DNA of 64,000 nucleotides. Source: Escherichia coli. Its GTDB lineage: Bacteria; Pseudomonadota; Gammaproteobacteria; Enterobacterales; Enterobacteriaceae. The notes beneath the pieces are model-generated. The model was not told the origin of the DNA, did not search any database, and saw only the letters and a list, made by a program, of their open reading frames with translations. The stretch lies in the NCBI RefSeq assembly GCF_003334305.1, contig NZ_QOWS01000013.1; one strand, given 5' to 3'. This document shows, in pieces, positions 43,973 through 63,322 of this stretch. Position 1 is the stretch's first letter. Every line of letters starts with the position of its first letter. The position numbers and the translations under genes were made by a program.

Positions 43973-44151
43973 CTGACGTACACATCAGCCCGTAATCTTT
44001 TTTGATTGCCATCACCTTAACGGGTGAGGGCGTTGTTGTTCGTTAATACACCTACTTTGAGCCGGTTCACACTTTTCAATGAAAATTGCTGATCAATTTC
44101 ATGATGAGTTATGTAGACTGGCCGCCATTAATTTTGAGGCACACGTACTAC

Positions 44152-46041
44152 ATGGCTGAATTCGAAACCACTTTTGCAGATCTGGGCCTGAAGGCTCCTA
44201 TCCTTGAAGCCCTTAACGATCTGGGTTACGAAAAACCATCTCCAATTCAGGCAGAGTGTATTCCACATCTGCTGAATGGCCGCGACGTTCTGGGTATGGC
44301 CCAGACGGGGAGCGGAAAAACTGCAGCATTCTCTTTACCTCTGTTGCAGAATCTTGATCCTGAGCTGAAAGCACCACAGATTCTGGTGCTGGCACCGACC
44401 CGCGAACTGGCGGTACAGGTTGCTGAAGCAATGACGGATTTCTCTAAACACATGCGCGGCGTAAATGTGGTTGCTCTGTACGGCGGCCAGCGTTATGACG
44501 TGCAATTACGCGCCCTGCGTCAGGGGCCGCAGATCGTTGTCGGTACTCCGGGCCGTCTGCTGGACCACCTGAAACGTGGCACTCTGGACCTCTCTAAACT
44601 GAGCGGTCTGGTTCTGGATGAAGCTGACGAAATGCTGCGCATGGGCTTCATCGAAGACGTTGAAACCATTATGGCGCAGATCCCGGAAGGTCATCAGACC
44701 GCTCTGTTCTCTGCAACCATGCCGGAAGCGATTCGTCGCATTACCCGCCGCTTTATGAAAGAGCCGCAGGAAGTGCGCATTCAGTCCAGCGTGACTACCC
44801 GTCCTGACATCAGCCAGAGCTACTGGACTGTCTGGGGTATGCGTAAAAACGAAGCACTGGTACGTTTCCTGGAAGCGGAAGATTTTGATGCGGCGATTAT
44901 CTTCGTTCGTACCAAAAATGCGACTCTGGAAGTGGCTGAAGCTCTTGAGCGTAACGGCTACAACAGTGCCGCGCTGAACGGTGACATGAACCAGGCGCTG
45001 CGTGAGCAGACACTGGAACGCCTGAAAGATGGTCGTCTGGACATCCTGATTGCGACCGACGTTGCAGCCCGTGGCCTGGACGTTGAGCGTATCAGCCTGG
45101 TGGTTAACTACGATATCCCGATGGATTCTGAGTCTTACGTTCACCGTATCGGTCGTACCGGTCGTGCGGGTCGTGCTGGCCGCGCGCTGCTGTTCGTTGA
45201 GAACCGCGAGCGTCGTCTGCTGCGCAACATTGAACGTACTATGAAGCTGACTATTCCGGAAGTAGAACTGCCGAACGCAGAACTGCTGGGCAAACGCCGT
45301 CTGGAAAAATTCGCCGCTAAAGTACAGCAGCAGCTGGAAAGCAGCGATCTGGATCAATACCGCGCACTGCTGAGCAAAATTCAGCCGACTGCAGAAGGTG
45401 AAGAGCAGGATCTCGAAACTCTGGCTGCGGCACTGCTGAAAATGGCACAGGGTGAACGTACTCTGATTGTTCCGCCAGATGCGCCGATGCGTCCGAAACG
45501 TGAATTCCGTGACCGTGATGACCGTGGTCCGCGCGATCGTAACGACCGTGGCCCACGTGGCGACCGTGAAGATCGTCCGCGTCGTGAACGTCGTGATGTT
45601 GGTGACATGCAGCTTTACCGCATTGAAGTGGGCCGCGATGATGGTGTTGAAGTTCGTCATATCGTTGGCGCGATTGCTAACGAAGGCGACATCAGCAGCC
45701 GTTACATCGGTAACATTAAGCTGTTTGCTTCTCACTCCACTATCGAACTGCCGAAAGGTATGCCGGGTGAAGTACTGCAACACTTTACGCGTACTCGCAT
45801 TCTGAACAAGCCGATGAATATGCAGTTGCTGGGCGATGCGCAGCCGCATACTGGCGGTGAGCGTCGTGGCGGTGGTCGTGGTTTCGGTGGCGAGCGTCGT
45901 GAAGGCGGTCGTAACTTCAGCGGTGAACGCCGTGAAGGTGGTCGTGGTGATGGTCGTCGTTTTAGCGGCGAACGTCGTGAAGGCCGCGCACCGCGTCGTG
46001 ATGACTCTACCGGTCGTCGTCGTTTCGGTGGCGATGCGTAA
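44152..46041 (+). CDS. deaD: Cold-shock DEAD-box RNA helicase DeaD (CsdA), 629 aa
   Basis: Motifs GSGKT, DEAD, SAT and [11 protein letters not shown]; Arg/Gly-rich repetitive C-terminus; start at the internal Met [13 protein letters not shown]. Confidence 0.95.
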
Positions 46042-46066
46042 TCATCGCTGAACAGCGAACACAGTC

Positions 46067-46084
46067 TGTAAAATAATATATACA
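46067..46084. promoter_or_regulatory. Putative TyrR box (TGTAAA-N6-TATACA) upstream of mtr
   Basis: TGTAAAataataTATACA resembles the TyrR box consensus TGTAAA-N6-TTTACA. Confidence 0.35.
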
Positions 46085-46115
46085 GCCCCGATTTGAACCA
46101 TCGGGGCTTTTTTTC
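46083..46115 (+). terminator. deaD rho-independent terminator
   Basis: Hairpin CAGCCCCGATTTGAACCATCGGGGCT followed by T7. Confidence 0.75.
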
Positions 46116-46123
46116 TGTCTTTT

Positions 46124-46141
46124 GTACTCGTGTACTGGTAC
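46124..46141. promoter_or_regulatory. Putative TrpR operator in the mtr promoter
   Basis: GTACTCGTGTACTGGTAC resembles the Trp operator palindrome (GTACTAGTTAACTAGTAC). Confidence 0.45.
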
Positions 46142-46194
46142 AGTGCAATACATAACAACGCAGTCGCACTATTTTTCACTGGAGAGAAGCCCTC

Positions 46195-47439
46195 ATGGCA
46201 ACACTAACCACCACCCAAACGTCACCGTCGCTGCTTGGCGGCGTGGTGATTATCGGCGGCACCATTATTGGCGCAGGGATGTTTTCTCTGCCAGTGGTCA
46301 TGTCCGGGGCGTGGTTCTTCTGGTCAATGGCGGCGCTGATCTTCACCTGGTTCTGTATGCTGCATTCCGGCTTGATGATTCTGGAAGCTAACCTGAATTA
46401 CCGAATCGGTTCGAGTTTTGACACTATCACCAAAGATTTGCTGGGCAAAGGCTGGAACGTGGTCAACGGCATTTCCATTGCCTTTGTGCTCTATATCCTG
46501 ACCTATGCCTATATTTCTGCCAGTGGTTCAATTCTGCATCACACCTTCGCAGAGATGTCGCTAAACGTCCCGGCACGGGCGGCGGGTTTTGGTTTTGCAC
46601 TGCTGGTAGCGTTTGTGGTGTGGTTGAGTACTAAGGCCGTCAGCCGCATGACGGCGATTGTGCTGGGGGCGAAAGTCATTACCTTCTTCCTCACCTTTGG
46701 CAGCCTGTTGGGGCATGTGCAGCCTGCGACATTGTTCAACGTTGCAGAAAGCAATGCATCTTATGCGCCGTATCTGCTGATGACATTGCCGTTCTGCCTG
46801 GCGTCGTTTGGTTATCACGGTAACGTGCCAAGCCTGATGAAGTATTACGGCAAAGATCCGAAAACCATCGTGAAATGCCTGGTGTACGGTACGCTGATGG
46901 CACTGGCGCTGTATACCATCTGGTTGCTGGCGACGATGGGTAACATCCCGCGTCCGGAGTTTATCGGTATTGCAGAGAAGGGCGGTAATATTGATGTGCT
47001 GGTACAGGCATTAAGCGGCGTGCTGAACAGCCGTAGCCTGGACCTTCTGCTGGTCGTGTTCTCAAACTTTGCGGTAGCGAGTTCGTTCCTTGGCGTAACG
47101 CTGGGTTTGTTTGACTATCTGGCAGATCTGTTTGGTTTCGATGACTCAGCCCTGGGGCGCTTGAAAACGGCATTGCTGACCTTTGCCCCGCCTGTTGTGG
47201 GTGGTCTACTGTTCCCGAACGGATTCCTGTACGCCATTGGTTATGCTGGTTTAGCAGCTACCATCTGGGCGGCAATTGTTCCGGCGCTGTTAGCCCGCGC
47301 ATCGCGTAAACGCTTTGGCAGCCCGAAATTCCGCGTCTGGGGCGGCAAGCCGATGATTACGCTGATTCTGGTGTTTGGCGTTGGCAACGCACTGGTCCAT
47401 ATTTTATCGAGCTTTAATTTACTGCCGGTGTATCAGTAA
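46195..47439 (+). CDS. mtr: Tryptophan-specific permease Mtr, 414 aa
   Basis: HAAAP-family polytopic membrane protein; translation [22 protein letters not shown]. Confidence 0.95.
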
Positions 47440-59703: not shown

Positions 59704-60795
59704 TTACCGCACGATGACGGTAATGGTGGCTGTGCCCTGAAATTTTCCTGTTTCCAGCTCACCACCGACCAGATTAACTGGCCAGGCGCGCATATTGACG
59801 GTGCCATGCCCGGAAGGATCAACGGGAAGGATACCGTTCTGAAAAGGAATATTTGCAACTCCGCCGCCGAGATTTTCAATACGAATACCGACATCGGGCA
59901 CATTGTCTGAACTTCTTCGCCTGGCGACCAGGTTGTACTGGTCTACTACCCCAGTTGTACCGTCGATGCGCATTTGCAACGAGTTTTTAATCTTTGAAGT
60001 ATCACCACAGTCATAAGTGATATCAAAGTCTACTGGAGTAAAACCGTCTGGCATGGCATTGCGGGTGGTAAACTTCTGACCATTGATGAATCCAAAATTA
60101 ACCTTAATAACATCGCCCTGATTAATTTTGCACGACTGTGGGGCGGTGAGATTTCCCTGAATCGATAACTTGACTAAATCATGGAAGTCACCTGTAGACG
60201 GGCTTCCCATTCCATCGACCCACGCGCCTTTAATGACGGCAATATCCGTTTTCGGAATGGTCATCGAGCCGAGAAATGGCTTGGTGACATACAGGGTAAA
60301 GGTGGTGTTCGCACCAATATTAACGGGTCCATAACGAGACGTATCACCCTGGCAAACACCCGTTTGGGTTGCAGCAGAATATACCGTGTTGTTTTTTATC
60401 TGTGTGAATCGGGTGTTAACAGAGACAACCTGGTCGGTTGTGAGTCCTGGAATGTCGTTTGCCTGTAATGTGGTTTTAATATCCAGGCTGTCATTGAGTT
60501 TGTAATATCCTGTCTGATGTCCAGTGGTGGTAAGTACGGGGCTGACCATATAGACAAGTTTAACTGCCTTACCCGCAGAGCAGGAACAGGCGTATTGCCA
60601 GTTAGTGCTACTTAGCGTTGCAGAGGTAAACTCCCGTCCTGTCACGTTATCTGTCTGGTTCACCGTAACATCATCAACCACACTGCTGTAATTTGTCGCA
60701 CCGCTAGTGCTGTCAGCGCCACACCCTCCTGAGGAGGCATAAGCGCAGGATGTGGATATCAACAAAAGTCCTGTTATAAGAGGCGCTCTTTTCAT
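59704..60795 (-). CDS. yraK: Putative fimbrial adhesin-like subunit YraK, 363 aa
   Basis: Start at the internal Met MKRAPLITGLLLISTSCAYA (signal peptide); the ORF track extends 86 codons upstream into yraJ. Confidence 0.85.
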   Translation of the reverse strand: MKRAPLITGLLLISTSCAYASSGGCGADSTSGATNYSSVVDDVTVNQTDNVTGREFTSATLSSTNWQYACSCSAGKAVKLVYMVSPVLTTTGHQTGYYKLNDSLDIKTTLQANDIPGLTTDQVVSVNTRFTQIKNNTVYSAATQTGVCQGDTSRYGPVNIGANTTFTLYVTKPFLGSMTIPKTDIAVIKGAWVDGMGSPSTGDFHDLVKLSIQGNLTAPQSCKINQGDVIKVNFGFINGQKFTTRNAMPDGFTPVDFDITYDCGDTSKIKNSLQMRIDGTTGVVDQYNLVARRRSSDNVPDVGIRIENLGGGVANIPFQNGILPVDPSGHGTVNMRAWPVNLVGGELETGKFQGTATITVIVR

Positions 60796-60805
60796 TTTTT
60801 TATCC

Positions 60806-63322
60806 TTAATGGCACTGCGCCGTGCCTTGTAATACAGAGGTTGTTGGTTCTGAATCCGGTGTACTAAAAGCAAACTGACATTGTTGATCTGCCTGATTTC
60901 CCCAGCGTACAGTCCAGCTTTGTGATTTACTCGATATCCCAGAGAGATATAGTATGCCGCCCTCATCGACGATACTTTGTTGCCCCGTCTCATCGTTGCT
61001 GGCAAGAGCGCCAAAGGGCAACGGTTTACCGTTGCGATCGCTGACTGTAACAAGTACGCGATAACCGATATTGGCGTTGAAACGCGCCGCTACCATTGCA
61101 CCTCTGTTGGGCACCACAAACTGTGTTGTTTGTTCAAGATCGACGTTATCGGGCAGCTGCGTAGTATCTACCGAGAGACGGTTTTCCTGGTAAGTCGTGA
61201 GATAAGGAACCACTGCATAGCCAAAGGGATCAGTAGCAATCCCCGGATAGTTTTGTATCCTCACGCCAGAAGCCCCATTAGCATCGATAAGCGCAAAAGC
61301 GTTGCCCAGATATTGCGAGAGCGTCACGCCATGAGGATGGATAACCACGCCGCCGGTAACGCCGTAATTGTATTGGCTGCTGTCATTACCGTAGCTGTAT
61401 CCGGCACTGAAGGTGCCATAAGGTGAACGGTAACTGGCGTTCAGGCTACTGTTATGGTTGTTATCGTCATCCAGACTTTGTTCCAGGCTATAGCTCAGGC
61501 GACCATCATCCAGCAGTGAGCCATCAAGACGCATTTCATGTTGGGTTGGGCGATCTTTCTGGCTGGTCATCTGATAGGAAACCCGGCTACGCGGTAACCA
61601 GCGTTCTAACGGAATACTGAGATTCAAAGAGAGTGCACGGTCATTATTTTCATCAGTGTAGCGGCTGTATTGATAATTCAGGCTGTAACCAATTCCCCAT
61701 TGCTGGCCGGAAACCCCAACAGAGATATTCCTGTTTTTCTCGTTATTGCCCCAATAGTCTTGCTGCGAACCGGAGGCATACAGACTTACCCCATCAAATA
61801 TTGTCTGGCTGATGTTGAATTGAATTTCACTTTTTTGGCGACTGTTATAGTCCCAATTGCGGGTATTGGCTTCATCAAAACTAAAATAGCCATCGTTGGT
61901 ATAGCGATAGTAGCTAACAGCGATATTGGTGTTGGTTTCCGGGATATCTTTGATGTACTGCGTACGCCATTGATAGCCATGAAAAGAGTGCTGGTTATCG
62001 AATTGGGTGTCAGCTCTGTTGATATCCATCGACAACGCGCCCAGTGCGCCAAGTGTGCCGCCGATACCGATCCCCAGCGCATAATAATCTTCAGAACCGA
62101 GCAGGCCGCCATACAGCGTAAAAGTATTATTCAAACCATATATTGCCGTGGCTTCAGCAAATTCTGGTTCCTTGCTATCACTGTTTGCATCAGCGCGATA
62201 GCGTCCAGCGGTCGCGCTATATTTTAGATGCCCAGGTCGCTGCATCATGGGTAATGAAGAATAAGGCTGGATAAAGCGACGTTGTGTACCGTCACTTTCT
62301 TCAATCGTGACTTCTAAATCGCCGCTGTTGGAAGAGGGGTAGAGATCGTTAATTTCAAAGGCACCCGCTGGCACGTTGCTTTGATAGATCACATAACCAT
62401 TTTGCCTGATAGTCACGATTGCACTACTGTTTGCGATACCGCGTACCGTTGGGGCAAATCCGCGCTGGCTGTTTGGCAACATATTATCGTCGGAAGCGAG
62501 TTGCACGCCAGTAAAGGTGTAGCTGGAAAAAATACTGCCGCTGGTGGCGCTTTCTCCCAGAAGCAACTGAGACTTCAACGCCTTGATATCACGTTGTAAA
62601 TAACTACTGATAGTGTTCCAGCTTGACGCCTGATCGTTGCGTGTCCACGTAGAATAGTTACGTAATCGCCAGGGGCCAAAATTAGCACCATTTTGCATAT
62701 TCAGGTACTGTCGTTGGCTACGATTGCCCTGGCGGTAACGGTTATCAGAACCTGTAAACGAGTAGTTGGTAAACAGCGTTGGTATACCATCGTCCCAACG
62801 AGAAGGGGAGACGTAACCTCTTGCATCACGGTACAGTGCAATTTGGGGAATGCTCAAATTAAGTCGCTGATGATTGAAATCAAATTCAGCAGCTGTACCG
62901 GGAATGATTTGTTCAAGCGAGTTGATCACGCTATCGTCATCTTTTTCAGCCAGCGCCGGGATTTCATCCACCTTAATACCCAGCTCACGTAGTTGTTCTA
63001 CCGTAAACTGTGGCTGCAGAAGTTGCTCTGCATTGGCGGTAAATGTAATTTTTTTCTGTGAAACCTTCTTTTTATTCAGCCAGATATCAACCTGATAAGT
63101 TCCTGGTAGTTGTGCGTATTTTTTTGAAAAACGTGACAGATCAGTTGTTTGCATACCACTTTTTGTAGTTTCCAGCATAATGGGGTCGAAATAATACTCT
63201 TCGGCGTTAGCGGTAGTGCAAAGCATGCCGCTGCCAGTGAGCACCATCGGCAAACAGCGTTTGATGATGAGCGCCAACTGTTTCGGTGTGCGTTTATGTC
63301 CCTGGTGGTGTCGTTGTGGCAT
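60806..63322 (-). CDS. yraJ: Outer-membrane fimbrial usher YraJ, 838 aa
   Basis: FimD/PapC-like usher length and translation; sits between the chaperone and adhesin genes. Confidence 0.93.
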   Translation of the reverse strand: MPQRHHQGHKRTPKQLALIIKRCLPMVLTGSGMLCTTANAEEYYFDPIMLETTKSGMQTTDLSRFSKKYAQLPGTYQVDIWLNKKKVSQKKITFTANAEQLLQPQFTVEQLRELGIKVDEIPALAEKDDDSVINSLEQIIPGTAAEFDFNHQRLNLSIPQIALYRDARGYVSPSRWDDGIPTLFTNYSFTGSDNRYRQGNRSQRQYLNMQNGANFGPWRLRNYSTWTRNDQASSWNTISSYLQRDIKALKSQLLLGESATSGSIFSSYTFTGVQLASDDNMLPNSQRGFAPTVRGIANSSAIVTIRQNGYVIYQSNVPAGAFEINDLYPSSNSGDLEVTIEESDGTQRRFIQPYSSLPMMQRPGHLKYSATAGRYRADANSDSKEPEFAEATAIYGLNNTFTLYGGLLGSEDYYALGIGIGGTLGALGALSMDINRADTQFDNQHSFHGYQWRTQYIKDIPETNTNIAVSYYRYTNDGYFSFDEANTRNWDYNSRQKSEIQFNISQTIFDGVSLYASGSQQDYWGNNEKNRNISVGVSGQQWGIGYSLNYQYSRYTDENNDRALSLNLSIPLERWLPRSRVSYQMTSQKDRPTQHEMRLDGSLLDDGRLSYSLEQSLDDDNNHNSSLNASYRSPYGTFSAGYSYGNDSSQYNYGVTGGVVIHPHGVTLSQYLGNAFALIDANGASGVRIQNYPGIATDPFGYAVVPYLTTYQENRLSVDTTQLPDNVDLEQTTQFVVPNRGAMVAARFNANIGYRVLVTVSDRNGKPLPFGALASNDETGQQSIVDEGGILYLSGISSKSQSWTVRWGNQADQQCQFAFSTPDSEPTTSVLQGTAQCH

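Follow-up and report, generated by a model that had tools for sequence, protein, structure and literature searches.

Which proteins occupy the short stretch between deaD and mtr of Escherichia coli, and how do their binding sites share this space with the terminator of the upstream gene? An earlier note, made from the letters of the sequence alone, had described a TrpR-operator-like and a TyrR-box-like site in the mtr promoter region downstream of deaD, and had placed the second of them across the start of the deaD terminator. TrpR and TyrR have been recognized as regulators of mtr since 1991, and their action there belongs to the textbook account of aromatic amino acid regulation. Here, both sites and the terminator were analyzed within the window, i.e. 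the whole stretch of 64,000 nt of E. coli DNA under study, and in the corresponding region of related species.

The region of the window that contains the sites is the nlpI-deaD-mtr region of E. coli. All 5,426 complete E. coli genomes contained a match to a 351-nt query across it, annotated there as deaD and mtr, and the K-12 record holds the same gene order on the opposite strand (yhbW-mtr-deaD-yrbN-nlpI). One of the two flanking open reading frames (ORFs) ends at 46041 and the next begins at 46195. ORFs and annotation together identify the genes on either side as deaD and mtr. Read directly, the sequence from 46060 to 46145 is cacagtcTGTAAAATAATATATACAgccccgatttgaaccatcggggctttttttctgtcttttGTACTCGTGTACTGGTACagt. 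Over 181 nt, the window and K-12 MG1655 differ at five positions (46032, 46064, 46095, 46096 and 46150), none of which touches either site, and the TrpR and TyrR sites of the window are base for base those of MG1655. The coordinates of all features are collected in Table 1. The deaD start given there was derived from the 1890-nt K-12 annotation (629 amino acids), whereas the mechanical ORF extends from a TTG at 44086 to 46041 and has 651 amino acids; the K-12 annotation also has a small overlapping gene, yrbN, just upstream of the deaD start. Within the 3' coding part of deaD, a 33-nt unit is repeated 2.9 times with 72% matches (45854-45948). This repeat encodes the arginine/glycine-rich tail of DeaD, the length and sequence of which differ between species.

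Table 1. Features of the deaD-mtr region, in the numbering of the window.
Feature	Position	Strand	Sequence, parts and basis
deaD coding sequence, ATP-dependent RNA helicase	44152..46041	+	ORF and deaD annotation in matching E. coli genomes
deaD stop codon	46039-46041		TAA
Candidate weak (distal) TyrR box	46037..46054	.	CGTAATCATCGCTGAACA; covers the deaD stop codon; putative assignment
Strong (proximal) TyrR box	46067..46084	.	TGTAAAATAATATATACA; consensus, matrix, conservation, K-12 identity; centre about -76 from the putative start
deaD intrinsic terminator	46084..46114	+	stem 46084-46092/46100-46108, loop 46093-46099, T7 tract 46108-46114
Weak -35, CTGTCT/TGTCTT	46115..46121	+	putative; 17-18 bp spacing to the -10 and published 42 bp (PMC4374768)
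TrpR operator	46124..46141	.	GTACTCGTGTACTGGTAC; matrix, conservation, K-12 identity; about -28 to -11
Extended -10, TGgTACAGT	46136..46144	+	read from the sequence; TGGTACA invariant across species
mtr coding sequence, tryptophan:H+ symporter	46195..47439	+	ORF and annotation in E. coli genomes

The matrix scans for TrpR and TyrR that the earlier note had proposed were carried out with position weight matrices from which mtr was left out. As input, the best consensus matches in ten other K-12 promoter regions were used, meaning that the sites were picked inside the promoters of known regulon members. The TrpR sites were those of trpL (GAACTAGTTAACTAGTAC), aroH (GTACTAGAGAACTAGTGC), trpR (GTACTCTTTAGCGAGTAC) and aroL (GTACTAGTTTGATGGTAT), and the TyrR matrix comprised eight K-12 boxes from aroF (two), tyrP, tyrR, aroP, aroG and aroL (two). 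Random controls consisted of 200 first-order Markov sequences of 64 kb. With the TrpR matrix, which was built on four sites only, 46124-46141 ranked first in the 64 kb with 18.7 bits (next match: 11.3 bits), a value within the range of the training sites (17.3-24.9 bits) that was reached in 1 of the 200 random sequences. The TyrR matrix likewise placed 46067-46084 first, with 21.6 bits (next match: 12.5 bits); the training boxes score 14.0-23.7 bits, and none of the 200 random sequences attained the score of the mtr box. Both strings that the earlier note had singled out are present at the positions it gave, and each is the top match to its matrix. The second-best TrpR match at 62748-62765 (GAACCTGTAAACGAGTAG, 11.3 bits) and the second-best TyrR match at 59840-59857 (TGAAAAGGAATATTTGCA, 12.5 bits) each lie in a long ORF and score below the typical best match of a random 64-kb sequence, and both were discarded as chance matches.

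Consensus searches were also performed. The TrpR operator shares 14 of 18 bases with the idealised trp palindrome GNACTAGTTAACTAGTNC, and its four mismatches are inside the range found for the other operators (trpL 1, aroH 3, trpR 4, aroL 5). When the window was searched with the palindrome at up to three mismatches, no match was obtained, because the mtr operator has four. The pattern GTACT-N9-GTAC occurs once in the window, against 0.15 occurrences expected, and the operator holds a direct repeat, TGTACTCG/TGTACTGG, with a spacing of 8 bp. The strong TyrR box carries 11 of the 12 bases of TGTAAA-N6-TTTACA and keeps the G-N14-C pair (G46068 and C46083). At up to one mismatch to this consensus it was the sole match in the window, with 0.13 expected, while at up to two mismatches two matches were found with 2.35 expected, so that loose matching is uninformative. 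By every sequence-level criterion examined, one site belongs to the TrpR operators and the other to the TyrR boxes; they are in fact the mtr sites that serve as reference in E. coli K-12.

For mtr, a strong TyrR box with its centre 42 bp upstream of the -35 element and, at a distance of 8 bp, a weak distal box have been described; tyrosine-bound TyrR occupies the strong box only, and phenylalanine-bound TyrR both boxes (PMC4374768). Upstream of the strong box, CGTAATCATCGCTGAACA was the only TyrR-like sequence. Its agreement with the consensus is 8 of 12 bases, the G-N14-C pair is retained, and its matrix score is only 5.2 bits. Taken as 22-bp boxes, the two elements span 46035-46056 and 46065-46086 and leave a gap of exactly 8 bp. 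Because CGTAATCATCGCTGAACA is the sole upstream TyrR-like sequence and shows exactly this gap, we infer from the 8-bp geometry that 46037-46054 is the published weak box. The published boxes of mtr as a whole are assumed here to have the coordinates of Table 1, on the basis of their geometry. In the aligned Enterobacteriaceae loci outside E. coli, the candidate weak box was not conserved. In several loci from Phytobacter, Kosakonia and a related MAG (L006-L009, L028 and L070), a further TyrR-like element precedes the strong box by about 21 nt; its TTTACA arm is good, as in cTGTAAGTTCTCTTTACg and CAGTAAGTCAGCTTTACA. This distance is shorter than that of the weak box in E. coli, and the position of the auxiliary box thus seems to differ between genera.

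Two further observations concern the DNA around the candidate weak box. A small RNA hairpin, UCGCU-GAAC-AGCGA, is predicted at 46045-46058, right after the deaD stop codon and in the right arm of the candidate box; this fold was obtained for E. coli only. Further, a sigma-70-like match on the plus strand, TGAACA-17-AATAAT (9/12; 46049-46077), spans the candidate weak box and the strong box. It is probably a chance match, as judged from its -35 part, which is not conserved, and any transcript initiated there would proceed directly into the terminator of deaD.

Conservation of the sites was analyzed across the Enterobacteriaceae. A scan for the Mtr protein with one genome per species yielded 80 loci, with orthologues of 84-99% identity in 80 species, of which 78 had enough upstream sequence (79 including the window). 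The deaD stop codon of each species was taken from the longest ORF, with the DeaD tail checked. GTACTnnnGTACTGGTAC was present in 79 of the 79 species. Of the 18 operator positions, 15 do not vary at all, two others reach about 95% conservation, and 46130 is nearly unconstrained (0.23 bits). The left arm GTACT (46124-46128) is invariant although it lies inside the promoter spacer, and since RNA polymerase sets no base-specific constraint there, this invariance points to a bound protein. For the right half, the overlap with the extended -10 means that part of the invariance could be due to the promoter alone.

The TyrR box was found with one to three mismatches in 75 of the 79 species, most commonly as CGTAAAGTAAAATATACA. 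Its arms carry 1.4-1.9 bits per column, its centre (46077-46079) 0.4-0.8 bits and the eight bases upstream of it at most 0.5 bits, which looks like the pattern expected of a two-armed protein site. Conservation runs a few bases into the spacer, as GTAAAGTAA. The four taxa without the box, Cedecea neteri (L059), Enterobacter sp. Cy-643 (L063), Cedecea davisae (L068) and Shimwellia pseudoproteus (L081), have retained TrpR operator and terminator, and in the alignment their spacing is unchanged. TyrR control of mtr was apparently lost, or never gained, in these lineages. The longer hairpins that were initially obtained for the four taxa are an artefact of A-runs pairing with the T-tract; the alignment shows no change in length.

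In 75 of the 79 species, the deaD stop codon, the TyrR box, the terminator, the TrpR operator with the promoter, and mtr follow each other in this order at near-constant spacing. The centres of box and operator are 57 bp apart in 64 species, 56 bp in ten and 58 bp in one. The distance from the operator to the ATG varies from 48 to 75 nt, and that from the deaD stop codon to the box from 9 to 28 nt. Hence the 57-bp module between box and operator almost never gains or loses bases, with a scrambled loop inside it and flanks of variable length on both sides. This constancy is consistent with a need for helical phasing in activation by TyrR. It argues only faintly for selection on spacing by TyrR, because the taxa without the box show the same spacing.

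The deaD terminator that the earlier note had named is real. A pattern scan found a 9-bp stem, a 7-nt loop and a T7 tail, beginning 42 nt after the deaD stop codon, and folding of the RNA of 46040-46125 returned the same hairpin with -21.2 kcal/mol (z = -2.7). Among 77 distinct sequences, 91% of the cells in the stem alignment are paired and 6 of 11 pairs have changed on both sides; none of 500 shuffles reached the observed pairing or covariation, and in slid controls at most 52% of the cells were paired. Fold and covariation together therefore demonstrate a genuine conserved RNA hairpin, the base pairing of which is kept by compensatory changes. An Rfam scan of the region gave no family above threshold and sub-threshold noise only. 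A 21-nt inverted repeat with 71% complementarity connects the 3' half of the terminator (46098-46118) to the Shine-Dalgarno sequence and start codon of mtr (46178-46198); it could matter only in read-through transcripts and does not look conserved in other species.

The relation between the TyrR box and this hairpin needed correction. That the two overlap at the start of the hairpin, as had been claimed, is correct, but the statement that terminator and regulator site share sequence was too strong. With the 18-bp box, the two elements have only A46084 in common, the partner of T46108 in the stem (A-U in 76 of 77 sequences), and with the 22-bp definition they have three bases in common, 46084-46086. 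In all 75 box-bearing species, the stem begins with the final base of the box. Box and hairpin thus abut rather than share much sequence, and no conflict arises from the shared base because the box acts as double-stranded DNA and the hairpin as RNA.

The promoter of mtr was read from the sequence. Across species, the -10 hexamer is TACAGT or TACAAT, and the -35 region is poorly conserved. Transcription of mtr would start near 46151, and the exact positions of the -35 and -10 elements are putative in the same way. The centre of the strong box at 46075.5 lies 42-43 bp upstream of the centre of the putative -35 element. The TrpR operator spans the promoter spacer and overlaps the extended -10, and its position fits repression by occlusion. 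Relative to mtr, the terminator covers about -68 to -38, with the T7 tract at about -44 to -38. Both TyrR boxes would lie inside the deaD transcription unit, the candidate weak box on the stop codon and the strong box in the 3' UTR.

Could the two matches be chance resemblances to a consensus that have no regulatory role? The search for TyrR boxes at up to two mismatches does find no more than expected, and the operator is four mismatches away from the idealised palindrome. However, the stricter TyrR search returned one match where 0.13 were expected, the matrix scores are far above those of the next matches and of random sequence, and the sites are kept in 75-79 of 79 species beside flanks that are not conserved. 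In addition, regulation by both proteins has been reported (PMC4374768, PMC5343134, bioRxiv 10.64898/2025.12.20.695731). Conservation and literature effectively refute an origin by chance, to which we give practically no credence. Constraints unrelated to TrpR and TyrR might instead have preserved the same bases: GTACTGGTACA could be kept as an extended -10, and the block GTAAAG...ATACA as an RNA element in the deaD 3' UTR that serves stability or pairing with a small RNA. In favour of such constraints, the right half of the operator coincides with TGgTACAGT, the box is transcribed in the deaD 3' UTR at 9-28 nt past the stop codon in every species, and conservation extends into the box spacer. 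They would leave the left GTACT half-site, invariant within the promoter spacer, and the two-arm pattern of a palindromic protein site in the box without explanation. Nor does the box form a stable RNA helix, as the centroid fold leaves it unpaired; no Rfam family was detected at threshold, and matrices derived from unrelated promoters pick exactly these positions. We regard this explanation as very improbable.

The dense arrangement of box, hairpin and promoter might itself be functional. TyrR bound 0-18 bp upstream of the hairpin would then hinder polymerases that are completing deaD, and so modulate formation of the deaD 3' end, or alter read-through into mtr, and the terminator DNA with its T-tract would act as a length-constrained, A/T-rich spacer and as a docking surface for the alpha subunit of RNA polymerase. 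All 75 species that possess the box have it directly next to the hairpin, the 57-bp module is nearly free of indels despite its scrambled loop and variable flanks, and the T7 tract is placed at about -44 to -38. Against this, the spacing is also kept in the four taxa without the box, so that the fixed length may reflect terminator and promoter alone, or a low indel rate, and the hairpin DNA beside the box is G+C-rich, which is atypical of a docking site of the alpha subunit. A functional role of the packing is unlikely on this evidence. The literature search found no paper on the deaD-mtr overlap or on an effect of TyrR on deaD 3' ends or read-through, and a full-text search with the exact site strings returned only a primer in an unrelated paper.

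It is very probable that the region is the known mtr regulatory region, with the TrpR operator, the TyrR boxes and the deaD terminator acting in the following manner. Tryptophan-bound TrpR would bind the operator, which fills the spacer and overlaps the extended -10, and would thereby keep RNA polymerase off the promoter. TyrR with phenylalanine or tyrosine would bind the strong box about 42 bp upstream of the weak -35, and with phenylalanine would also bind the weak box at about 46037-46054. Activation by TyrR from there would be of class I and involve the C-terminal domain of the alpha subunit of RNA polymerase. The interval from the TyrR box to the core promoter would be taken up by the deaD terminator, which would end deaD transcription at the RNA level. 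While sites, scores, conservation and covariation were observed here, binding and the direction of regulation are taken from the literature, in which TrpR is a repressor and TyrR an activator of mtr (PMC5343134), activation by TyrR proceeds via the C-terminal domain of the alpha subunit (PMC4374768) and depends on a strong box located upstream of the -35 (PMC7142922). In a single-cell CRISPRi study from 2025, tyrR was found to activate and trpR to repress mtr, the repression being dominant, and CRISPRi of trpR increased mtr expression (bioRxiv 10.64898/2025.12.20.695731). The anatomy fits all these published statements, and no different mechanism is called for.

With the TrpR operators of trpLEDCBA, aroH, trpR and aroL, the mtr site has in common the 18-bp two-fold symmetry, arms of the GTACT/AGTAC type and the overlap with the core promoter. 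It is unlike them in that both CTAG cores are degenerate (CTCG and CTGG), in that it can also be read as a direct repeat of GTACT with 8-bp spacing, and in that it overlaps an extended -10 instead of a canonical -35/-10 pair. The strong TyrR box shares TGTAAA-N6-TTTACA and the A/T-rich centre with the boxes of the TyrR regulon (aroF, tyrP, aroL, aroP, aroG and tyrR). Most members of this regulon are repressed by TyrR, whereas mtr is activated, and the strong box of mtr is located upstream of the -35, the position that activation requires (PMC4374768, PMC7142922). The strong and weak boxes of mtr are 30 bp apart from centre to centre, while the two best matches in K-12 tyrP start 23 bp apart. 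The deaD hairpin resembles other intrinsic terminators in its G+C-rich stem and T tail downstream of a stop codon, but it is placed within the upstream activating region of mtr, with an activator site on one side and the core promoter on the other.

Since regulation of mtr by TrpR and TyrR was already known, the finding is correct but ordinary; a reading of the sequence alone had identified both sites correctly. What is added is descriptive: the deaD terminator, backed by covariation, separates the TyrR box from the core promoter of mtr, both TyrR boxes are situated within the deaD transcription unit, with the candidate weak box over the stop codon, and the strong-box arrangement is kept throughout the family. 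The comparative picture of this region in the Enterobacteriaceae illustrates, on a small scale, regulon turnover and the tight packing of bacterial intergenic regions.
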